Source: Deltaproteobacteria bacterium | GTDB taxonomy: Bacteria > Desulfobacterota > Desulfobaccia > Desulfobaccales > 0-14-0-80-60-11 | Reading direction: 5' to 3' | DNA: 62,074 nt | Assembly: GCA_016874915.1 (NCBI GenBank) | Contig: VGSW01000001.1 | Coordinates: 1 to 62,074, forward strand | Shown: one piece after another, positions 3,799-57,503 of the stretch | Layout: each line of letters begins with the position of its first letter | Position numbering within the stretch: position 1 is the first letter of the stretch | The notes under the pieces: generated by a model | What the model was told of the DNA's origin: nothing | The model's database searches: none | What the model saw: only the letters and a program-made list of their open reading frames with translations | Position numbers and translations under genes: made by a program

Positions 3799-3817
3799 GT
3801 CTCCTCTCCCTTGGTGG

Positions 3818-4864
<1,047 letters not shown>

Positions 4865-4865
<1 letters not shown>

Positions 4866-6175
4866 TATAAAATATACCGGCTCAAATCCTCATCCTCGAT
4901 CAAATTCGCCAGCCGGTCCCGCACATATTCCGCGGTGATGGCGATTTCCTGCTCCTCTAATTCCGGGGCTTTGAAGGAGATATCCTCCAGGAGCTTTTCC
5001 ATTACCGTGTGCAGGCGCCGGGCCCCGATGTTCTCCGTGCGCTCATTGACCCGGGTGGCCAATAGGGCCAGTTCCTTCACCGCATCCGGCCGGAAATTGA
5101 GGCGGATGCCCTCGGTGGCCATGAGGGCGTGGTACTGCTTGATGAGGGCGTTTTCCGGCTCGGTCAGGATGCGCTCAAATTCCTCCGGCCCCAGGGAGTT
5201 CAGCTCCACCCGGATGGGGAAGCGGCCCTGCATCTCGGGGATCAGATCCGAGGGCTTGGACATGTGGAAGGCCCCGGACGCGATGAACAGGATATGGTCG
5301 GTCTTGACCATGCCGTACTTGGTGTTCACCGTGGTGCCTTCCACGATGGGCAGCAGGTCCCGCTGCACCCCCTCCCGGGAGACGTCGGGCCCCCGGGTGT
5401 GGTTCCGCCCCGCGATTTTGTCGATTTCGTCCAGGAAGATGATGCCGTTCTGCTCCACCTTGCGCCGGGCCTCTTCCACCACCCGGTCCATGTCGATGAG
5501 GCGCTGGGATTCCTCTTGCAAGAGCAATTCCCGGGCTTCGGCGATCTTGACCCGCCGGGTCTTGGTCTTCTGGGGAAAGAGGCCCCCCATCATTTCCCGC
5601 AAATTGAATTCCATTTCCTCCATGCCACTGGCGGAAAAAATCTCCACCACCGGGGCCAGGCGCTGGGTGACCTCCATGTCCACGTAGCGGTCATCCATCT
5701 TCCCGTCCCGGAGCATGGCACGGAGCCGGTCCCGGGTGGCGTCCTTCTCGCCTTCCGGAGGCGGGGCGCTGCCGGGCAGGAGCAGGTCCAGGAGCTTTTC
5801 CTCCACCGCCTCCTGGGCCTTGGCCTGGACCTTGTCCCGTTCCGCGGCCTTAACCATGTTCACCGCCAACTCCATCAGGTCCCGGACCATGGACTCCACG
5901 TCCCGGCCCACGTAGCCCACCTCGGTGAACTTGGTGGCCTCGATCTTTAAAAACGGCGAATGGGCCAGCTTGGCCAGCCGCCGCGCAATCTCGGTTTTGC
6001 CCACCCCGGTGGGCCCGATCATGATGATGTTTTTGGGCGCGATCTCATCCCGCAGCTCCTCGGGAACCTGCTGGCGCCGCCAGCGGTTGCGCAGGGCGAT
6101 GGCCACGGAGCGCTTGGCGTTCTCCTGGCCCACGATGTATTTATCCAACTCCGCCACGATCTCCCGGGGCGTCAT
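4865..6175 (-). CDS. hslU: ATP-dependent protease ATPase subunit HslU
   Basis: [17 protein letters not shown], Walker [29 protein letters not shown] 4865..6220 trimmed to ATG 6175, by analogy with the E. coli N-terminus MSEMTPREIV. Confidence 0.93.
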
Positions 6176-8537: not shown

Positions 8538-8628
8538 GGGGTTAAAAGGTTAAAAGGGGAAAAGGTTAAAAGGGAAATAAATAATTTTCTTCAAAACCCG
8601 TTCCCCCCATCCCTTTTTCCTTTTTCCA
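8538..8628. repeat. palindromic element, family GGTTAAAAGGGGAAAAGG
   Basis: Related copies at 8911-8955, 13786-13860, 29613-29706, 48095-48125, 48231-48262 and 48605-48680. Confidence 0.8.
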
Positions 8629-8706: not shown

Positions 8707-8800
8707 AACTAAAAAATTCCATTAGCACAGGCCTCTGGCCGGTGGACACCGCCAGTTCCTGCCAGTGACTTTCACACAGGCTGGAAGCCTGTGCCACTCA
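8707..8800 (-). repeat. double-hairpin element, family GGCACAGGCTTCCAGCCTGTG
   Basis: Its reverse complement reads gtggcacaggcttccagcctgtg-N28-ccggccagaggcctgtgctaatggaattttttag. Confidence 0.82.
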
Positions 8801-8934
8801 GGGTAGTATTAACCTCGTCCCCAAGCTGTGCTTGGGGGCTCACTGATGACCAAAGCTTAGGTTTGGATACATTCGCCTTCCCAAGTACAACCTGGGAACG
8901 AGAAGACCTTTTTGCCCTTTAACCTTTTCCCCTT

Positions 8935-9846
8935 TTAACCTTTTAACCCTTTCCCCCTGGGGTGGGTTTTATCATATTCCTCCATCAAATAATCCAGGTT
9001 CAAGTGCAAATATCTCTGCGTACTGGAAATGGACGCGTGCCCCAGCAGTTCCTGCACCGTCCGCAAATCCGCCTTGCCTTCCAAAAGGTGGGTGGCAAAG
9101 CTGTGGCGGAGGCCGTGGGGGGTCAGCCCCGGGCTCAAGCCCGCCAGCCGGGCCCATTTGTCCACGATGCGCGCCACCCCCCGGGTGCTGAGCCGCGCTC
9201 CGGCGGGGTTGACAAACAGGGCGGCTTCCTCGGGGCGGCCTTTTTTCTCTACGAGCTGGCGGCGCAAGGGCAAATACCCGGCCAAGGCCTTCCGGGCCGG
9301 GTCGCCCAGGAAAGCCAGCCGCTCCTTGGCCCCCTTGCCCCACACCCGCAGCACCCCTTCGTTAAAATCCAGGTCTTTCAAATCCAGCCCGGCCAACTCC
9401 GACAGCCGCAAGCCCCCGGAGTAAAAGACCTCCAGGATGGCCCGGTCCCGCCGGGGGCCGAAGCCGTCGCCTTGGGCCTCGCTTACCAAATGGAAAACCT
9501 CGTCCACCGACAAAAAGTGGGGGAGCGGCTTCTCCAGCTTGGGGCTGGGGGCCAGCCGGGCCGGGTTCTGGGTGACTACGCCCCGGCGCTGCAGAAACTT
9601 GAAAAAGGAGCGCAGGGCCGAGAGCTTCCGGGCCACCGTGGTCTTGCTCCGTCCTTTCAAAGCCAGGGCCAGGAAGGCCCGCACGTCTTTATAAGTCGCG
9701 TCCCCCAGGGAACGGTCTTCGCCCCCGTAATAGAAATCCAGAAACTGGGCCAAATCCAGGCGGTAGTTCCGCAAGGTGTGGGCCGACATCTGCCGCTCCA
9801 CCCGCAAGTATTGCAGGAAATCCTCCAGAAGTTCCCAGCCGCCCAT
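8935..9846 (-). CDS. xerC: tyrosine recombinase XerC/XerD family
   Basis: 303 aa. SAHTLRNYRLDL, HGLRHSFATHLL, LLGHASISSTQRYLH. Its position upstream of hslVU is typical for xerC. Confidence 0.82.
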   Translation of the reverse strand: MGGWELLEDFLQYLRVERQMSAHTLRNYRLDLAQFLDFYYGGEDRSLGDATYKDVRAFLALALKGRSKTTVARKLSALRSFFKFLQRRGVVTQNPARLAPSPKLEKPLPHFLSVDEVFHLVSEAQGDGFGPRRDRAILEVFYSGGLRLSELAGLDLKDLDFNEGVLRVWGKGAKERLAFLGDPARKALAGYLPLRRQLVEKKGRPEEAALFVNPAGARLSTRGVARIVDKWARLAGLSPGLTPHGLRHSFATHLLEGKADLRTVQELLGHASISSTQRYLHLNLDYLMEEYDKTHPRGKGLKG

Positions 9847-11922: not shown

Positions 11923-12026
11923 AGGCAGTTTTCGGTTTTCGGTCTTCGGTTTTCGGTTAAAAGGATTGGGATTATTGAAGGATTGCAATTTGGGTTTGCA
12001 GCATTTGAGAAGGAAACCGGCATAAA

Positions 12027-16450: not shown

Positions 16451-16563
16451 TTAACCGCCGATGAACGCCGATTAACGCAGATTGGCCGGTTCAGGCGGAA
16501 CAAAGCCCGCCTGAACCGGCCAATTTCTTTATCTGTGTTTATCTGCGTTCATCGGCGGTTAAA
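16451..16563. repeat. palindromic element TTAACCGCCGATGAACGC...
   Basis: Outer arms ttaaccgccgatgaacgccgattaacgcagat / atctgtgtttatctgcgttcatcggcggttaa. Inner hairpin ggccggttcaggcgg...ccgcctgaaccggcc. Fills the gap between convergent stops. Confidence 0.88.
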
Positions 16564-25373: not shown

Positions 25374-25628
25374 AAATATCTTTTCATCCTTTACGGGTGA
25401 GCCAACGGCTCATGAACAACTGCTCTGAAAAGTTTTCGGTCTTCGGTCTTCGGTTTTCGGTTTGGAAAAAAGCGTAGGCTGGGAATGGCCCACCGAAAAC
25501 AGCTAAGGTAAAAGTAGAAACTACGATCGCCAGGTTCAAGCTAGGGCTTCAATTCAATACCAGGTTAACTGGTGTTAAAGGAAGCAAGGGGGCCGACTTC
25601 CGCGAAAAGTCAATTAAATTAGCCAGAT

Positions 25629-27741: not shown

Positions 27742-27865
27742 TTAACCACAAAGACACCAAGACACCAAGCAATACAGAGAATGCATTTATTTGTGTCCTG
27801 GAGTTCCAGGACACAAATAATTATTCCTTGGTGAATCTTTGTGTCTTTGTGTCTTTGTGTTTAAA
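27742..27865. repeat. palindromic element, family TTAACCACCAAGACACCAAGACAC
   Basis: ttaaccacaaagacaccaagacaccaag ... cttggtgaatctttgtgtctttgtgtctttgtgtttaaa, with inner hairpin 27786-27820. Confidence 0.85.
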
Positions 27866-27886: not shown

Positions 27887-27981
27887 ATACCATTTTCTCT
27901 TTCAAGTGCAACAAACTTAATCTGTAACTTATTGATAATCCGTAATTATCTTTACCGAAAACCGAAGACCGAAAACCGTAT
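27887..27981 (-). mobile_element. MITE-like element ATACC...GGTAT, diverged copy
   Basis: ataccattttctctttcaagtgcaacaaac...ttattgataat...ccgaaaaccgaagaccgaaaaccgtat. In the livM-livG spacer. Confidence 0.7.
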
Positions 27982-29612: not shown

Positions 29613-29706
29613 GGGGGTTAAAAAGGGGAAAAAGTAAAGAGGTTAAAAGGTTAAAAGGTTAAGAGGGGGAAGAAAATTATTTTTCCTTTTCCCCTTTTAG
29701 CCTTTC
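29613..29706. repeat. palindromic element, family GGTTAAAAGGGGAAAAGG
   Basis: Immediately after the livF stop. Confidence 0.8.
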
Positions 29707-29787
29707 GCCCCAAGGTTTTCCTCCTTGCCAACACTCGATGCCTGATTTATATTTCCCCAGATATTAACCTCGCGTGAGCCATAAATC

Positions 29788-31681: not shown

Positions 31682-31789
31682 ATACCGTTTTCGGTTTTCG
31701 GTTTTCAGTTTTCAGTTTTCGGTTAAATAAAATTTTATTATCAATGAGTTAGCCATTGAATTAATTGCATCTGAAACTGAACTTGGTAT
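31682..31789 (+). mobile_element. MITE-like element ATACC...GGTAT
   Basis: ataccgttttcggttttcggttttcag...ttattatcaatgagttagccattga...gcatctgaaactgaacttggtat. Between the convergent hemL and diguanylate cyclase genes. Confidence 0.85.
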
Positions 31790-34640: not shown

Positions 34641-34779
34641 AATAATCGATTTTGTATTCCCGAATACCCTTTTCATACCGCCTGACTCTTTTCCAATAAA
34701 TAAATAGTGTCTGTCCCCCTTTTTTCCTTTTTCCGCCCTTTTTCCGAGCTGGAGCTTGGGAACTGAGGAGAAAGGGGGA

Positions 34780-34894
34780 GCGGGTTAGCGGGTTGGCTCT
34801 TGGCAGGTGTCTGGGTTTTGCTATCATCCCTTTGCTGGTCATCCGTTAACTGCCAACGGCTAACCCGCCAAACCGCTGAACCGCCAAACCGCCA
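34780..34894. repeat. palindromic element, family GCGGTTCAGCGG / AACCGCTAAACCGC
   Basis: Upstream of polA. Confidence 0.8.
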
Positions 34895-34940: not shown

Positions 34941-37892
34941 ATGGCCGAAGAACCCCGGGTCCTATATCTCATTGACATCAGTTCCTATTTTTACCGGGCC
35001 TTTCATGCCATCCGGGGCCTGTCCACCTCCAAGGGCTTCCCCACCAACGCGGCGTTTGGCGTGACCAACATGCTCCTCAAAGTGCTGCGGGAGCGCCAGC
35101 CCCAATATTTGGCCCTGGTCTTTGATTCCAAGGCCCCCACCGTCCGCCATAAGCGCTACCCCGAGTATAAGGCCCACCGTCCGCCCATGCCCGAGGAGCT
35201 GGTGATGCAGCTCCCCTACATTCATAAGATTATAAAAGCCTTAAACCTGCCGGCCCTGGAGCTGGAAGGGTTTGAGGCCGACGACCTCATCTGCACCCTG
35301 GCGAAGAAGGCCCTGGACCAGGGTTTCCAGGTGGAGATCATCAGCGGCGACCGGGACCTGCTCCCTTGCGTCACGGCAGGGGTGGACATGTGGGATCCCA
35401 TGAAGGAGACCCGCTATGACCCGCAAGCCATCCGGGAGAAATACGGGCTGGAGCCGGAGCAGTTGGTGGACGTCAAATCCCTGGCCGGAGACCCCAGCGA
35501 CAATATCCCCGGGGTGCCGGGCATCGGGGAGAAGACCGCGCTCAAGCTCATCAGCCAATACCATAGCCTGGAAAACCTCCTGGCCCATGTGGACGAGATC
35601 AAGGAGAAATCCTTAAAGGCCCGCCTGAAAGAACATGCCGACCAGGCCCGCCTGAGCCGGGAGCTGGTGCTCCTGAACGAGAGCGTCCCCTTGCCGGTGG
35701 ACCCGGAGGCCCTCCACCCCGGGGCGCCGGACCGGGAGGCTTTGCGCCAACTATTCGTGGAGTTAGAGTTCAGCAAGTTTACCAAGGAACTGGGGTTTGA
35801 CCTGCCGGCGGCGGAGGCTTGTTTTCTGGCCCGTGGGGTGGAAGACCTGGAGGGGGTGGCCAGGGGGATAAGAGAAACCGGGGAGATGGGGATTTTTTTC
35901 ATCACCGCGGAACAGCACCCGGTGATGGCCGCGGTGGCGGGGGTGGGCCTGTCCTGGCACCCAGAGGAGGCGGCCTACGTTCCTTTGGAAGATATTACTA
36001 GGAACGGAAAAGAAGTTCCTTCACCCCCACCCCAGCCCTCCCCCCTCAAGGGGGAGGGGGTTAAAGGAAGCCTCTTCGGGGAGGGGGGAAAAGGAAGCCT
36101 CAGTGGGGCGGGGGTTGAAGGAATTCTCACCTCAGAAGGAGTTAAAGGAAGCCTCAAGGGGGAGGGGATTATACCAAGTTCGGTTTCTGGTGCAACAAAT
36201 CAAATTACTAACCTATTGATAATTAATAATTTATTAACCGAAAACCGAAAACCGAAAACCGAAAACGGTATTATTAAAGGAAACCTCACCGCGGGAATCT
36301 GGGAAAAATTAGGGCCCATGTGGGCGGACCCCGGGGTCCGTAAGATTGGCCCGGACCTGAAGGCCGCGGCAGTGCTAGGCCGCCGCTTCGGCCAGGACCT
36401 GGCCGGAATCACCGGCGACATCCTGCTGGCTTCCTACCTCCTCAACCCCGCCCGGTATGAACAGACCCTGGAGAACGTGGCCCTGCACCATCTGGGGATT
36501 AACCTCCCCGGCCCCAAGGACCTTACCGGGCGGCCGACGGCCGCCGCGGACCTCCCCCGCGACCTGGCCTGCCAATACGCCGCGGCCCGGGCCCAGGCGA
36601 GTTTAAATCTCTGGCCGCGGCTTAAAGCCCAATTGGAAAAAGAGGGCCTCTGGGACCTTTATCGCCAATTGGAGCTGCCGCTGCTGGCCGTCCTGGCCCG
36701 CATGGAGGAACGGGGCATCCTGGTGGACCAGGAATTTTTAAGGCGTTTCGGGCAAGACCTGGAAGTCCAGATGGCGCGCCTGGAACAGGAGATCTACGCC
36801 CTGGCGGGGGAGACCTTTCTGATTAACTCTCCCCAGCAACTCAGCCGCATCCTCTTTGACAAATTGAAAATCACCCCCCAGAAAAAGACCAAGGGCAAAA
36901 CCGCTTACTCCACCGACATGGAGGTGCTCCAGAGCCTGGCCCCGGAGGCGCCCATTGCCGCCAAGGTATTGGAGTACCGCGGCATGGGGAAACTCAAGGC
37001 GACTTACGTGGACGCGTTGCTGAAACTGGTGAATCCCGCCACCGACCGGGTGCACACCACCTTCCTGCAGTCCGTGGCCGCCACCGGACGCCTCTCCAGC
37101 CGGGACCCCAATCTGCAGAACATCCCGGTGCGGGGCGAACTGGGGGGCCAGCTCCGCCAGGCCTTCATACCTCCCCCGGGATGGGTTTTCCTGAGCGCGG
37201 ATTATTCCCAGATGGAGCTGCGGCTGCTGGCCCACTTCTCCGAAGACCCGGCCCTGCTTCGGGCCTTTCAGGAAAAGGTGGACATCCACCGGCAGACCGC
37301 CGCGGTGGTCTTCAATATCCACCCCGAACTGGTGACTTCGGAGATGCGCCGCCAAGCCAAGGTGGTGAACTTCGGCATCATCTACGGCATGAGCCCCTTC
37401 GGCCTGGCCAAACAGTTGGGGGTGGGAACCCGCATCGCCCACGAGTTCATCCAGCGGTATTTTGCCCGACACACCCAGGTCAAAGCCTACCTGGACCGAA
37501 CCCTGGAGGAGGCCCAGAAGCAGGGCTGGGTGACCACCCTATTGGGGCGGCGGCGCCAGATTCCCCAGATTAACAGCGCCAACCGCATCCTCCGCCAGGA
37601 GGCGGAGCGCGCCGCCATCAACACGCCGCTCCAGGGCACCGCGGCGGACATCATCAAGAAAGCCATGATCCAGGTGGAGGCGTATTTGCAAGAGGCGAAC
37701 CTGAAAGGGAGGATGCTGCTTCAGCTTCATGACGAGCTTCTGTTTGAGGCGCCCCGGGAAGAACTCCCGGAAACGGCCCGGCGGGTGCGCCGGGTCATGG
37801 AAGGGGTGGTGGAGTTGCGCGTCCCCCTGGTGGTGGATTTGCGCCAGGGCCACAACTGGGGAGAGATGTATCTACTGGATAAATCAATATAA
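34941..37892 (+). CDS. polA: DNA polymerase I, carrying an in-frame ~100-codon repeat-derived insertion
   Basis: 5'-nuclease domain (LIDISSYFYRAFHA, GDPSDNIPGVPGIGEKTA). Pol motifs A (LSADYSQMELRLLAH), B (RRQAKVVNFGIIYGMS) and C (LQLHDELLFE). 983 aa. Confidence 0.93.
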   Translation: MAEEPRVLYLIDISSYFYRAFHAIRGLSTSKGFPTNAAFGVTNMLLKVLRERQPQYLALVFDSKAPTVRHKRYPEYKAHRPPMPEELVMQLPYIHKIIKALNLPALELEGFEADDLICTLAKKALDQGFQVEIISGDRDLLPCVTAGVDMWDPMKETRYDPQAIREKYGLEPEQLVDVKSLAGDPSDNIPGVPGIGEKTALKLISQYHSLENLLAHVDEIKEKSLKARLKEHADQARLSRELVLLNESVPLPVDPEALHPGAPDREALRQLFVELEFSKFTKELGFDLPAAEACFLARGVEDLEGVARGIRETGEMGIFFITAEQHPVMAAVAGVGLSWHPEEAAYVPLEDITRNGKEVPSPPPQPSPLKGEGVKGSLFGEGGKGSLSGAGVEGILTSEGVKGSLKGEGIIPSSVSGATNQITNLLIINNLLTENRKPKTENGIIKGNLTAGIWEKLGPMWADPGVRKIGPDLKAAAVLGRRFGQDLAGITGDILLASYLLNPARYEQTLENVALHHLGINLPGPKDLTGRPTAAADLPRDLACQYAAARAQASLNLWPRLKAQLEKEGLWDLYRQLELPLLAVLARMEERGILVDQEFLRRFGQDLEVQMARLEQEIYALAGETFLINSPQQLSRILFDKLKITPQKKTKGKTAYSTDMEVLQSLAPEAPIAAKVLEYRGMGKLKATYVDALLKLVNPATDRVHTTFLQSVAATGRLSSRDPNLQNIPVRGELGGQLRQAFIPPPGWVFLSADYSQMELRLLAHFSEDPALLRAFQEKVDIHRQTAAVVFNIHPELVTSEMRRQAKVVNFGIIYGMSPFGLAKQLGVGTRIAHEFIQRYFARHTQVKAYLDRTLEEAQKQGWVTTLLGRRRQIPQINSANRILRQEAERAAINTPLQGTAADIIKKAMIQVEAYLQEANLKGRMLLQLHDELLFEAPREELPETARRVRRVMEGVVELRVPLVVDLRQGHNWGEMYLLDKSI
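36057..36164 (+). repeat. four tandem 27-nt units (GGGGTTAAAGGAAGCCTC...) inside polA
   Basis: Units at 36057, 36084, 36111 and 36138 encode GVKGSLFGE/GGKGSLSGA/GVEGILTSE/GVKGSLKGE. A degenerate fifth unit resumes at 36274, after the MITE. Confidence 0.85.
36171..36271 (-). mobile_element. MITE-like element ATACC...GGTAT, inside the polA reading frame
   Basis: Its reverse complement matches the other copies end to end (ataccgttttcggttttcgg...ttatcaataggttagtaat...accagaaaccgaacttggtat). Confidence 0.85.
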
Positions 37893-38063: not shown

Positions 38064-38354
38064 ATGATGAGGAAATTGGTAAGGAAGGGCTTTGCTTTGG
38101 CGATGCTCATGGCCTTTGTGGTGGCCATGGGAGCGGGCTGCTGCGACGTCTGCAAGAAAAACGTAGACGAAGCCAAGATGTACGCCGATCAAGCGGCGGC
38201 CTCGGCTTCTAAGGCGGACAGCGCGGCGCGGAACGCCGAAATGGCGGCTGCTGATGCTAAGGCTTCGGCGGATAAGGCTGAGGCTGCGGCGGATCGGGCT
38301 GAGGCTGCGGCTGCAAAAGCTGAGGCCTGCCTGATGAAGAAGATGCGGAAGTAA
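38064..38354 (+). CDS. OprI/Lpp-like alanine-rich lipoprotein ending in Lys
   Basis: Signal plus ..GAGC lipobox-like Cys. Ala/Asp/Lys-rich helix (ADQAAASASKADSAARNAEMAAADAKASADKAEAAADRAEAAAAKAE). C-terminus KKMRK. Confidence 0.6.
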   Translation: MMRKLVRKGFALAMLMAFVVAMGAGCCDVCKKNVDEAKMYADQAAASASKADSAARNAEMAAADAKASADKAEAAADRAEAAAAKAEACLMKKMRK

Positions 38355-38412: not shown

Positions 38413-38763
38413 ATGAGGAAGGCGATGAGAAAAGGCTATGCCCTGGCTCTCCTCGCGGTCTTTGCCCTGGTGCTGGGAGGTGCTGGCTGCTGCCAAAAGT
38501 ACTATGATCAGTGCAAGATGTACTCGGAGCAGGCCAAAGCTTCTTCAGATCGGGCCGCCGCGTCGGTGGTAAAGGCTGAGGCAGCCGCACAGGACGCTAA
38601 AGTCCCCGTACCGCGGGCCTCCGCTGCTGCCAACAAGGCGGAAGCGGCCGCCGCGCGGGCGGAAGACGCGGCTGAGAAAGTCTGCGCCAAGGTAAAGTTC
38701 AAGAAGGTTGTCAAAAAGGCGAGGGTGAAGAAGGCCAAACCGGTCAAAAAGATCAAGAAATAG
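38413..38763 (+). CDS. OprI/Lpp-like alanine-rich lipoprotein paralogue with Lys-rich tail
   Basis: Same signal/Cys architecture (LGGAGCC) and Ala-rich helix. Tail KFKKVVKKARVKKAKPVKKIKK. Confidence 0.6.
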   Translation: MRKAMRKGYALALLAVFALVLGGAGCCQKYYDQCKMYSEQAKASSDRAAASVVKAEAAAQDAKVPVPRASAAANKAEAAAARAEDAAEKVCAKVKFKKVVKKARVKKAKPVKKIKK

Positions 38764-38821: not shown

Positions 38822-38866
38822 GGTGTGGTGTGAGCTGTCGCTCGCCACACCTTCTGTCTTTTTTTT
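38822..38866 (+). terminator. rho-independent terminator after the second lpp-like gene
   Basis: GGTGTGG..GAGC-tgtc-GCTC.CCACACC stem, followed by ttctgtc and T8. Confidence 0.55.
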
Positions 38867-38948
38867 GGTTTTCGGTTTTCGGCGGCTTAAAAAGGCAAGT
38901 TGGTTACCCTATTGGGGGGGCCCCTGGGAAACTATCAGGGTTCATCTT

Positions 38949-39048
38949 ATACCGTTTTCGGTTTTCGGTTTTCAGTTTACGGTTAAATGAAATGTATTAT
39001 CAATAAGTTAGTCATAGATTTTGTTGCATCTGAAACTGAACTTGGTAT
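38949..39048 (+). mobile_element. MITE-like element ATACC...GGTAT
   Basis: Near-identical to the 48136 copy. Between the convergent lpp-like and ldt genes. Confidence 0.85.
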
Positions 39049-48033: not shown

Positions 48034-48135
48034 TATTAGGCCCTGATAAAGGAATTATGATGGCCGTAAAGGCTAAATTCTTAAGATTCTACCACAAAAA
48101 GGGGGAAGGGGAAAAGGCTAAATGGGGAAGAGGTA

Positions 48136-48229
48136 ATACCGTTTTCGGTTTTCCGTTTTCGGTTAAAAGAAATTGTATTATCAATAAGTTAGCCATAGAA
48201 TTTGTTGCATCTGAAACTGAACTTGGTAT
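48136..48229 (+). mobile_element. MITE-like element ATACC...GGTAT
   Basis: ataccgttttcggttttccgttttcggttaaaagaaattgtattatcaataagttagccatagaatttgttgcatctgaaactgaacttggtat. Confidence 0.85.
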
Positions 48230-48427
48230 AAAAAGGTTAAAAGGGCGAAAAGGCGAATAGGGGAAAATAGGAGGAATCGATCAATTTCGCGTCCCCGAAC
48301 CCAAATTGGGGTGGGAATTTTTATCTCACCCCCCTTTTAACCTCTACCGATTGTTTCTTTAACTCCGGACGGGACCTTTGAGAACCGGGCGCCTCTTACT
48401 GAAAAGAATAAAGACAAAATCTTTAAT

Positions 48428-48585
48428 GGCACAGGCTTCCAGCCTGTGGTTGCCTTGCTGAATCAACAACTCTGTCCACAGGCCAGAGGCCTGTGCCACT
48501 AAATTTTTTCAGGTTGGTAATTTCGTTCGAAATATGATCTTTTTTGCACCCTCTCCGACTTACCTTTTCGGAGCTAAGGGAATAA
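48428..48585 (+). repeat. ~155-nt composite element: two hairpins + T-run + conserved tail
   Basis: ggcacaggcttccagcctgtgg-N28-cacaggccagaggcctgtgccactaaatttttt...gcaccctctccgacttaccttttcggagc. Confidence 0.8.
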
Positions 48586-48707
48586 TCTATAATCTCTTAA
48601 CTACTTATCCTTCTCCTTTTCGCCCTTCCGCTATAACTTCTTCCCCCTTTTAACCTTTTCACCCTTTCCCGCCGGTGTTATTTTATAAATAAATAAGAGG
48701 ACCCTCA

Positions 48708-49754: not shown

Positions 49755-49923
49755 ACTGTTGTTTTCGGTTTTCGGTAAAAAGATTTCCACCTTCTAGTTT
49801 GTCTGCTCATGTGATCCGTCGCTCCCATTTCCAGCCAGATTTTTCCCCCTCCCGCCCGGAATAATGATAATATGAGGGCCGGTATCAAGCCGGTTATACT
49901 TCAAACCACTTTTGTTCAAAGAT

Positions 49924-50547
49924 ATGGACATTATCGCCCTGGAGCAGCACAGCGCCGCACAACTGGTGGATAAACTTCGCCGGGTGCCCCTGCTGGAGCA
50001 GCCGGATGTTTTCGTTTATGAACATGCCCTGATCACCCTGGAGCGGATTCATACCGACTATCTTAATCCGGCCCAAAACTATATCTGGCTCCAGGAGCTA
50101 CGCAAGACCCAGGAACTGCACTGGAGTCTGGCAGCCTTGGGAGTGGACCTCTTCCGCCTGGACGGCTACGTCACTTATACGGTGCGCCAGGCCGACGGCT
50201 CCGAGGCGACCTATGACCTCTATCCCCCCATCGTGGAGGAGTCCGTGGAAGCCGACGGCACTCTAACCGCGGTGATCAATGACGGCATGCATCGGGTCTA
50301 TCTGGCCCGCCTGGAGTGGATCATTCCCCAGGTGGTCTATATCCGCGGGGTCCCCAAGGCTTTCCCCTATTACGCCTTTCCCCGCCCGGAGGGCTGGGAG
50401 GGGCTGGACCTCCTGGCGGAAAACCCCAATCCTCAGACTTACTTGAAAAAATGCCACCGGCAGCGGGAGAATAAAAAACTCTTTCGTGACTTCCAGGCGG
50501 TCTTCCACAACGTGGGCCGTCCCCGCAGCCGGCTTTTGAAGAGTTAG
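49924..50547 (+). CDS. stand-alone ParB/sulfiredoxin-like nuclease-domain protein
   Basis: LNPAQNYIW..., PPIVEE...VINDGMHRVYLAR resembles the ParBc DGxHR core. Start ATG 49924 (or TTG 49912). Confidence 0.45.
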   Translation: MDIIALEQHSAAQLVDKLRRVPLLEQPDVFVYEHALITLERIHTDYLNPAQNYIWLQELRKTQELHWSLAALGVDLFRLDGYVTYTVRQADGSEATYDLYPPIVEESVEADGTLTAVINDGMHRVYLARLEWIIPQVVYIRGVPKAFPYYAFPRPEGWEGLDLLAENPNPQTYLKKCHRQRENKKLFRDFQAVFHNVGRPRSRLLKS

Positions 50548-50627
50548 CCGTGAGCAGTAAGCAGTGAGCAGTGGAGTTTATCCTCCGCCAATAACTAACT
50601 GCTAACTGCTCACTGCTCACTGCTAAC
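50543..50627. repeat. palindromic element, family GTGAGCAGTGAGCAG
   Basis: gttagccgtgagcagtaagcagtgagcagtg ... taactaactgctaactgctcactgctcactgctaac. Contains the stop codon of the ParB-like gene. Confidence 0.85.
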
Positions 50628-50645
50628 TGTGAACGGAGTGAACTT

Positions 50646-51568: not shown

Positions 51569-52036
51569 ATGAAAGGTGAAATCCGCGGGTCCTTTTGGCT
51601 GTGGGTCTCCTTCGTGACCTGGGTGGTGTTGGCGGGGACCGCGCCGGCGGGGGCGGAAGTCCGGGAGGCCAACGCCGGCCGGGGCGGGGAAACCCTGGAC
51701 CTCAACTCCCTGGCGGCCCCGGGACGGATCACCATGGTGGAGTTTTACAGTCCCTACTGCCCGCCGTGCCTCAGCCTGGCGCCGCTGCTGGAGCAACTGG
51801 CCGCCAGACGCTCCGACCTTTCTATCCGGAAGGTCAACATTAACCGTCCCGAGATCAAGGGCATCGACTGGAAGTCCCCCTTGGTGCGCCAATACAGCAT
51901 CCGTTCGGTGCCGTATTTCGTGATCTTTGACCCCAAGGGAAAAGTCGCGGCCCATGGCAAAGCCGCAACCCGGCAACTGGAGGACTGGCTTACGGAAGCC
52001 AGACTTTTAAACATGGGGGAAAAGGGGAAAAAGTAA
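51569..52036 (+). CDS. secreted thioredoxin-like protein
   Basis: Signal peptide. MVEFYSPYCPPCLSL (CPPC). Confidence 0.75.
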   Translation: MKGEIRGSFWLWVSFVTWVVLAGTAPAGAEVREANAGRGGETLDLNSLAAPGRITMVEFYSPYCPPCLSLAPLLEQLAARRSDLSIRKVNINRPEIKGIDWKSPLVRQYSIRSVPYFVIFDPKGKVAAHGKAATRQLEDWLTEARLLNMGEKGKK

Positions 52037-52138
52037 CCAATAATCAGTAAGTAATCAGTAATCAGTAATCAGTAATCAGTGATCAGTGATCAGTCGATTT
52101 CCAATTGGTTACTGGTCACTGATTACTGGTCACTGATT
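52036..52138. repeat. palindromic element whose left arm is an (AATCAGT)n heptamer array
   Basis: Six contiguous heptamers at 52053-52094, plus one at 52042. Right arm actggtcactgattactggtcactgatt. Confidence 0.88.
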
Positions 52139-52147
52139 AAAGGAGTA

Positions 52148-54200: not shown

Positions 54201-54273
54201 GTTAGATAGTGAGCAGTGAGCAGTTGGCTGTTAGCAGTTAGTAGCTAAAACTCAAAACTCGAAACTCAAAACC
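54201..54273. repeat. GTGAGCAG block followed by AAAACTC heptamer block
   Basis: gttagatagtgagcagtgagcagttggctgttagcagttagtagct + aaaactcaaaactcgaaactcaaaacc. Confidence 0.8.
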
Positions 54274-55680: not shown

Positions 55681-55758
55681 GTCAGGTTTCAGGTTTCAGG
55701 TTTTAGGTTTTAGGTTTTACTGACCACTGACCACTGGCCACTGATCACTGACCACTGG
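55681..55758. repeat. GGTTTCA/GGTTTTA heptamer block followed by CTGACCA/CTGATCA block
   Basis: gtcaggtttcaggtttcaggttttaggttttaggtttta + ctgaccactgaccactggccactgatcactgaccactgg. Confidence 0.85.
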
Positions 55759-55767
55759 CAACAAGAC

Positions 55768-57368: not shown

Positions 57369-57503
57369 TATTCGGTTTCCCTCCCCCCTCTAAAACCAGT
57401 TTCCGGTTTTCGGCTAAAACCTAAACCTTGAACTTTGAACCTTGAACTTAAATTTTAGCCCCAGACCCCTACTCCCTATCTATTCCCTACTCCTATTCCC
57501 TAA

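Follow-up and report, generated by a model that had tools for sequence, protein, structure and literature searches.

Rickettsia palindromic elements (RPEs; Ogata et al. 2000, 2002), as summarised in a 2024 review (PMC10969869), are repeats of ~150 bp, and in several families most copies lie in frame within open reading frames (ORFs). Here we describe a similar arrangement in the DNA polymerase I gene (polA) of a metagenome-assembled genome (MAG) labelled Deltaproteobacteria bacterium, on a 62,074-nt stretch of contig VGSW01000001.1 that we refer to as the window: a transposable element of the miniature inverted-repeat type (MITE) sits in frame in a loop of PolA that also carries older repeats. 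As with RPEs, a housekeeping gene holds a short palindromic mobile repeat in frame; the repeat sits where the protein fold can accommodate it and is read as an extra peptide. We suggest that this locus very probably records three successive repeat-DNA events in one permissive loop, the MITE being kept in frame and tolerated by the protein. However, the sequence and host of RPEs are unrelated to those of the polA MITE, whose family has a single known genic copy, and no clear TWA target-site duplication is described for RPEs in that summary. No RPE-type Pfam match was obtained on the 983-aa PolA, the host is a Desulfobaccales-like MAG, and one Rickettsia phylogenomics paper says nothing explicit about polA among the RPE host genes.

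In-frame MITE fusions are "not unusual" according to the same review (PMC10969869), and in-frame genic copies occur among ERIC, BOX, the Coxiella elements QMITE1/2 and the Anabaena MITEs (PMC10969869, PMC5896051). A preliminary description of this locus was right that a mobile repeat lies inside the gene, but overstated the case in calling this unusual. The ERIC, BOX, QMITE and Anabaena elements are likewise non-autonomous, carry terminal inverted repeats (TIRs) and lie for the most part between genes, in-frame fusions or insertions within a gene being occasional, and QMITE2 loci are also hotspots of nested insertion. They differ from the present family in sequence, size and duplication: QMITE2 has 7–9-bp direct repeats, whereas the family described here is 85–120 bp long, makes a TWA duplication and contains an internal heptad microsatellite. 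MITEs of the IS5/PIF-Harbinger type share the 3-bp 5'-TWA-3' duplication and short TIRs (PMC4482050), but no cognate transposase or full-length insertion sequence was found for our element in the window or the loci compared, and its putative assignment is by the duplication. A minisatellite-containing MITE of Porphyromonas gingivalis is likewise described as varying in length via an internal tandem repeat (PMC4596501); organism and element are unrelated to ours. The affected domain finds a parallel in Taq and Bst polymerase I, which keep the exonuclease fold and have lost its catalytic carboxylates, but have a short loop where this PolA has ~100 repeat-derived residues. The polA MITE works like the documented in-frame cases, yet its sequence, its host and its type of duplication set it apart from all of their families. 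Distinctive here are three nested repeat layers at one loop, clear empty-site evidence, and the siting in an inactive domain of an enzyme for replication and repair.

The reading of polA as one 983-codon ORF stands, with full Pfam matches along the protein: 5_3_exonuc_N (residues 8–169), 5_3_exonuc (171–265), DNA_polI_exo1 (461–517) and a complete DNA_pol_A (residues 598–975, model positions 2–381 of 381, E = 1e-157). In the PDB its sequence best matches those of Taq, M. smegmatis Pol1, Klenow and Bst. The identical database protein, MBM4272865.1, is annotated "MAG: DNA polymerase I [Deltaproteobacteria bacterium]", and the nearest named relatives are MAGs of Desulfobaccales and Desulfobacca. 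Purifying selection acts on polA outside the insert (dN/dS of 0.12–0.15 against three relatives, and 0.11–0.12 for the polymerase domain), and we infer from the sequence that PolA function is probably retained. Typical orthologues of 884–896 aa have 5–13 residues at the position where this protein has ~100, and the alignment thus delimits, as had been proposed, an insert of ~100 codons absent from them. Longer orthologues were found only in the three nearest relatives (P0002, 951 aa; P0003, 927 aa; P0004, 969 aa; 78–86% identity), whose loops carry 35–75 extra repeat-derived residues. A SPPPQPSPLKGEGVKGS block is common to this PolA and these three proteins only, with differing unit number and sequence, and the MITE-encoded peptide occurs in none of the three.

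The uppermost layer of the insert is the MITE itself (coordinates of all features are given in Table 1). The preliminary description had placed an ATACC...GGTAT element at 36171–36271; the element is real, but its termini had been set one base off, the ends being TACC...GGTA between two direct TTA copies. Together with the 3-nt duplication the 99 bp make 102 nt, or 34 codons, and the frame is kept. Only one of the six frames through this copy is open, that of polA, the other five having 1–5 stops. It encodes ~33 low-complexity residues, the copy being translated as IPSSVSGATNQITNLLIINNLLTENRKPKTENG and the stretch of PolA that spans the MITE-encoded part reading IIPSSVSGATNQITNLLIINNLLTENRKPK. 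The GC fraction falls from ~0.63 in polA to 0.33 within the element. The MITE is absent from the polA genes of L004, L005 and L006, loci fetched for comparison, and an empty-site allele of the window's polA would read GGGGAGGGGATTATTAAAGG. In L005 the last 27-nt unit of the underlying repeat array, GGGGGAGGGGGCTAAAGGAAGCCGCACCGCGGGA, is uninterrupted; its counterpart in the window is GGGGGAGGGGA[TTA-MITE-TTA]TTAAAGGAAACCTCACCGCGGGA, a fifth unit resuming after the element at the position noted before. Judged from these aligned sequences, the L005 unit is the empty site of the polA MITE apart from one extra ATT codon in the window, and relatives in this way bear out the earlier proposal that the MITE landed inside a pre-existing array. 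At L011:8758–8856, in another contig, lies a copy with 100% identity to that of polA, which is at most 83% identical to all others; the polA insertion is therefore a recent one, and the L011 copy may be either its sibling or its source. The flanks of the L011 copy (tcccctgggggc-TTA ... TTA-ctccagccatcc) are unrelated to polA.

The element occurs five times in the window, against an expectation of zero, and the four copies outside polA are all intergenic, as had been reported. We assembled 30 distinct copies. Five are those of the window, and three came from a scan of species-representative genomes, in MAGs of Syntrophales, Desulfobacterales and "Deltaproteobacteria"; 29 metagenome contigs, almost all of them belonging to one sample series, supplied the remainder. 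Family members share TACC...GGTA termini, a left arm TACCAAGTTCAGTTTCAGATGCAAC, an AT-rich core CTAACTTATTGATAAT and, in partial complementarity to that left arm, a right arm built from 2–7 AAAACCG/AAAACTG heptads. The termini are perfect in 28 of the 30, while the extended arms pair imperfectly (75% complementarity over 24 nt). The length classes (85, 92, 99, 106 and 120 bp) are separated by whole heptads, and 93- and 98-bp subfamilies exist in addition. Identical flanks, TTA/TTA or TAA/TAA, are found in 28 copies; as these flanks are direct and not inverted, they represent a target-site duplication rather than an extension of the terminal repeat. Counts at the target positions are 29/30 for T, 30/30 for W and 30/30 for A, with no further preference. 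G-run/TTAAAGG arrays, considered as a preferred target because of the 48.1-kb and L035 copies, were rejected, since the counts require only T-W-A. The copies are dispersed with unrelated flanks, and with its size (MITEs being shorter than ~300–500 bp), the lack of a transposase gene, its TIRs and its target-site duplication the element is a prokaryotic MITE. PIF/Harbinger transposons, relatives of bacterial IS5, leave a 3-bp TWA duplication as their signature (PMC4482050), and by this analogy the element may have been mobilised in trans by an IS5/PIF-Harbinger-type DDE transposase. L012 and L014, which had not been captured as short copies and were considered as autonomous partners, were rejected as ordinary copies with mutated 3' ends. 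A divergent MITE cousin with the arm GTTGCATGGGAAACAGAACTTGAGA lies at L005:5395–5500, in the spacer 3' of two small ORFs where the window has its copy at 38950–39047; the superfamily is therefore present in relatives although their polA is MITE-free.

Of all 30 copies, the one in polA is genic and the other 29 are not internal to a real gene; where three open stretches do span a copy, it lies at the extreme edge or the stretch is GC-rich antisense noise. A phmmer search with the 101-aa insert against 1.84 billion representatives yielded no second real protein with an internal copy, the 10 weak matches being all short and evidently spurious ORFs on intergenic copies. A word-indexed protein search returned one spurious 48-aa ORF for the MITE peptide and nothing for the peptide of the older block, such low-complexity queries being weak probes. 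Small database "proteins" over these repeats (P0121–P0131, 48–140 aa) correspond to the open +2 frame of intergenic MITE copies (...IPSSVS.ATN...LLTENRKPKTENGI...) or, in P0130, to a read through two copies of the palindrome described below, and are annotation noise made by the repeats. Rfam, searched at gathering thresholds over the whole window, gave no match; the element is thus no RNA or intron of a known family. Length plus duplication is divisible by three in 18 of the 30 copies, and the frame used in polA (+2) is free of stops in 13. By a crude estimate, averaged over copies, orientations and phases, a random insertion into coding sequence stays open in ~10% of cases; no special mechanism is therefore required, only a site that tolerates 34 extra residues.

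Two older layers underlie the MITE. The first is a G/C-run palindrome with 9-bp arms and a 5-nt loop, for which a DNA hairpin fold was computed. Its core, CCCTCCCCCCTCAAGGGGGAGGGGG, had been put at 36037–36059 and is present at 36036–36060; it occurs once in the window, with none expected by chance. It had been described as a component of the insert, which it is, but it is also a separate dispersed repeat resembling repetitive extragenic palindromic (REP) elements, and not merely part of the 27-nt array. The full motif recurs at four non-polA sites (L010, L019, L022 and L035) in ~400 kb, in the form CCACCCCCACCCYAA-CCCTCCCCC-loop-GGGGGAGGG, and also within polA of L004 and L005; L022 additionally holds a shorter CCCTCCCC/GGGGAGGG hairpin. 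REP elements are imperfect palindromes of 20–40 bp dispersed in many copies; they are associated with RAYT transposases, and one of their ends bears the tetranucleotide GTAG or CGTC as a tag (PMC3733652). Neither GTAG nor CGTC occurs within 36022–36060. The second layer is the 27-nt array. Four tandem units had been placed at 36057–36164 and are there, with four in-register copies at 27-nt spacing, and Tandem Repeats Finder reports a longer array (27-nt period, 4.7 copies, 67% matches) whose units are ~67–76% identical to one another. In the polA DNA of L004–L006 the same palindrome is followed by 1–5 copies of the 27-nt unit. The polA insert of P0004 (L005:2727–2778) holds an extra, unrelated segment of 15–17 residues, AAFGDTGKPERPHGT, between repeat units, so that the loop there gained yet another lineage-specific piece.

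With the insert removed, this part of PolA aligns to Klenow (E ~1e-9), and the insert falls at Klenow "...PVAHDYLDAPDQISRERALELL...", between ExoI and ExoII, as an earlier alignment by hand had indicated. That alignment had also suggested substituted exonuclease carboxylates, and this is what we find: D424 of Klenow (NLKYD) is replaced by Ala (DLKAA) and D501 (YAAEDA) by Arg (YAAARA) in the HMMER alignment, and counting back by register in the same alignment gives Ile for D355 and Ala for E357. The substitutions are clade-wide (FFLTGEQHPV...). Judged from the four replaced carboxylates, the 3'-5' exonuclease-like domain is catalytically dead, a structural relic. In an AlphaFold2 model built with 50 orthologues, residues 352–449 have a predicted local distance difference test score (pLDDT) of 23–38 and no secondary structure, while the flanks are confident (a strand at 343–348 before the insert, a helix at 449–462 after it). 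Against the Bst and Klenow large fragments the model reaches a target-normalised template modelling score of 0.84–0.86 with ~110 gap columns. The insert, placed earlier in a loop, is thus predicted to form a disordered surface loop.

We suggest that a dispersed palindrome was first captured, by the ancestor of a small sub-clade resembling Desulfobaccales, in the ExoI–ExoII loop of a domain that would already have been dead. The 27-nt unit beside it would then have been amplified, with later expansion and contraction by slippage or unequal recombination, of which only in-frame variants would have survived; that palindrome capture preceded amplification is the order we infer. Recently, and in this lineage only, a 99-bp non-autonomous cut-and-paste MITE would have entered the TTA of the fifth unit and duplicated it, the result being ~34 extra residues in a ~100-residue, presumably disordered loop that the protein tolerates. 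The gene would stay open because the 102 nt added, together with the orientation and phase of the element, put its sole open frame in that of polA.

Several observations weigh against this history. Compared with its homologue in L005, the interrupted unit of the window is longer by 105 nt and not by 102, which leaves one ATT codon unexplained. The junction and the long protein are predicted from assembled sequence; an independent assembly of the MITE junction was not found, as the metagenome scan did not return the window contig, and the exact PolA protein is recorded on five contigs, yet no fetched locus overlaps the window. An autonomous element with the same termini, which would be bounded by TACCAAGTTC...GGTA, was not found in the window and the 35 loci (~400 kb in total), so that the TWA duplication alone points to the transposase family. 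Finally, since the MITE insertion is recent, dN/dS is uninformative about selection since the event.

The insertion could instead be a recent, mildly or strongly deleterious one, present perhaps in part of the population and possibly impairing the polymerase, a reading that we regard as unlikely. The cell would then survive because the insertion spares the 5'-3' nuclease domain and because polA, as in model bacteria, is not absolutely essential. Full identity to the sibling copy leaves little time for selection to have acted, the polA copy is the sole genic one among 30, and the 5'-3' exonuclease domain (residues 8–265) does lie upstream of the insert. However, the ORF is fully open, three related lineages already tolerate repeat-derived extensions of this loop, the flanking domain has a confidently predicted fold, and no active site is disturbed in a domain that is dead clade-wide.

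It seems rather improbable that the loop is a recurrent landing pad, where repeat DNA arriving in waves (palindrome, minisatellite, MITE) would be kept as an expanding, lineage-specific disordered segment with some function, as a spacer or in interaction, or that the MITE family keeps its stop-free frame adaptively, as an RPE-like case outside Rickettsia. We likewise consider it very unlikely that the insert is an exapted adaptive module, whether a disordered linker or interaction region or an open frame that serves the MITE as a strategy to survive in coding DNA, as has been proposed for Rickettsia RPEs. Three successive repeat events at one loop, a +2 frame open in 13 copies, and the persistence of the older block across lineages at a dS of 0.5–1.0 would agree with such a role. 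At the same time, one genic copy among 30 and the short spurious ORFs returned from 1.84 billion proteins speak against it; the older block differs freely between relatives in both length and sequence, as expected of neutral low-complexity sequence; and the open frame follows from stop-free heptads (AAAACCG read as KPKTENR).

An assembly artefact, in which the metagenome assembly would be chimeric or collapsed across the MITE or the 27-nt array, is highly improbable, even though the window derives from a MAG, an identical 99-bp copy exists at L011 and no independent junction assembly was retrieved. Both flanks of the MITE are polA and jointly rebuild one 27-nt unit, and TTA is duplicated as is typical of the family (28 of 30 copies), whereas a chimeric join would link polA to a foreign flank and not return to the same codon phase; moreover, the array units are diverged enough to assemble, and the exact protein is recorded on those five contigs. 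Removal of the element from the mature product as an intron or intein is extremely improbable, for beyond the fact that a conserved gene is interrupted nothing speaks for it, while no Rfam family, introns included, reaches threshold in the window, a 34-residue peptide without a Pfam match is far too short for an intein, and the duplication and dispersed intergenic copies are transposon hallmarks.

The preferred history, of three repeat-DNA events in a tolerant loop, would make this locus a clean natural example of mobile and repetitive DNA lengthening a conserved housekeeping protein without breaking it. Its events are relatively datable, two older layers being common to relatives and one very recent layer having an identical sibling copy, and it suggests that a domain which has lost catalysis but kept its structure can serve as a sink for insertions. 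We did not find this MITE family (85–120 bp, TACC/GGTA ends, TWA duplication, variable heptad tract, in uncultured sulfate-reducer-like MAGs) described. For annotation, the 983-aa polA model is probably correct, and no frameshift or chimera flag is warranted.

Table 1. Coordinates of polA, the layers of its insert, the other MITE copies and the short-unit arrays in the window
Feature	Position	Strand	Remarks
polA, DNA polymerase I	34941..37892	+	single uninterrupted ORF, 983 codons; protein MBM4272865.1
Lineage-specific insert	~35994..36296	+	101 codons, residues ~352–452; ExoI–ExoII loop of the vestigial 3'-5' exonuclease-like domain
Layer 1, G/C-run palindrome, REP-like	36022..36060	+	CACCCCCACCCCAG-CCCTCCCCCC-TCAA-GGGGGAGGGGG, translated PPPQPSPLKGEG
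Layer 2, 27-nt tandem array	36044..36171	+	9-codon unit GEGVKGSLx, in frame; 4 complete units and start of a fifth
Left target-site duplication, TTA	36169..36171	+	as in 28/30 distinct copies (identical TTA or TAA on both sides)
Layer 3, MITE TACC...GGTA, 99 bp	36172..36270	+	imperfect inverted-repeat arm, AT-rich core CTAACCTATTGATAAT, four AAAACCG heptads
Right target-site duplication, TTA	36271..36273	+	from the alignment of MITE copies
Fifth 27-nt unit, remainder split off by the MITE	36274..36294	+	TTAAAGGAAACCTCACCGCGG; 81% identity to the reference unit
MITE copy, 93-bp subfamily, intergenic	27888..27980	+	TAA duplication
MITE copy, 106 bp, intergenic	31683..31788	-	TTA duplication
MITE copy, 98 bp, intergenic	38950..39047	-	TAA duplication
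MITE copy, 92 bp, intergenic	48137..48228	-	TTA duplication; nested in another short-unit array element
Short-unit arrays, part 1	2501-2582, 3817-3903, 4786-4867, 8540-8627, 8906-8956, 16451-16561, 27747-27860, 29616-29720		
Short-unit arrays, part 2	34726-34894, 48090-48135 and 48231-48276, 48620-48670, 50542-50629, 52016-52139		
Short-unit arrays, part 3	54208-54272, 55684-55759, 57424-57502		

The neighbours of polA are ordinary chromosomal genes (arginine biosynthesis, an XerC/D-type recombinase, gatB, a branched-chain amino-acid ABC transporter), and a Pfam sweep of the 37 ORFs of the window found no transposase. Directly 3' of polA lie two small paralogous Ala/Lys-rich ORFs (38064–38354, 96 aa; 38413–38763, 116 aa). 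Both have signal- or lipoprotein-like N-termini and CC motifs and no Pfam match; the pair contains a 21-nt in-frame tandem repeat at 38256–38326, and its position is conserved in L004–L006.

Almost every intergenic spacer of the window holds a small element in which an array of 7–8-nt units (e.g., GGTTAAAA, GTTGACA, AGCGGGTT and ACTGACC) faces an inverse array. With ~20 such elements in 62 kb, this is an unusually repeat-dense housekeeping region for a genome of ~62% GC, and the elements resemble the heptamer short tandemly repeated repetitive (STRR) sequences of cyanobacteria. At 48090–48276 the 48137–48228 MITE copy is nested at TAA within a GGGGAAAAGG/AAAAGGTTAAAAGGG array, a second case of a MITE inside another repeat. 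At L035:7480–7660 a 120-bp copy lies at GGGGGAGGGGAT-TAA, immediately 3' of the same palindrome as in polA; relative to the palindrome it is one base off the position of the polA MITE and in the opposite orientation. The polA and L035 copies (n = 2) are suggestive of a local hotspot for the MITE beside the palindrome.

Heptad tracts of GTTTTCG occur at 11928–12015, 25432–25463, 38862–38882 and 49761–49776, the first of which keeps the MITE layout (GGTTAAAAGG...TTGCA) without the termini, and these tracts look like older decayed or truncated members of the MITE family. Another short hairpin repeat, of GGCACAGGCTTCCAGCCTGTGCCAC and GGCCAGAGGCCTGTGCCAC types, is seen in spacers at 8775–8800 and 48428–48500, as well as in the flanks of L017 and L022.

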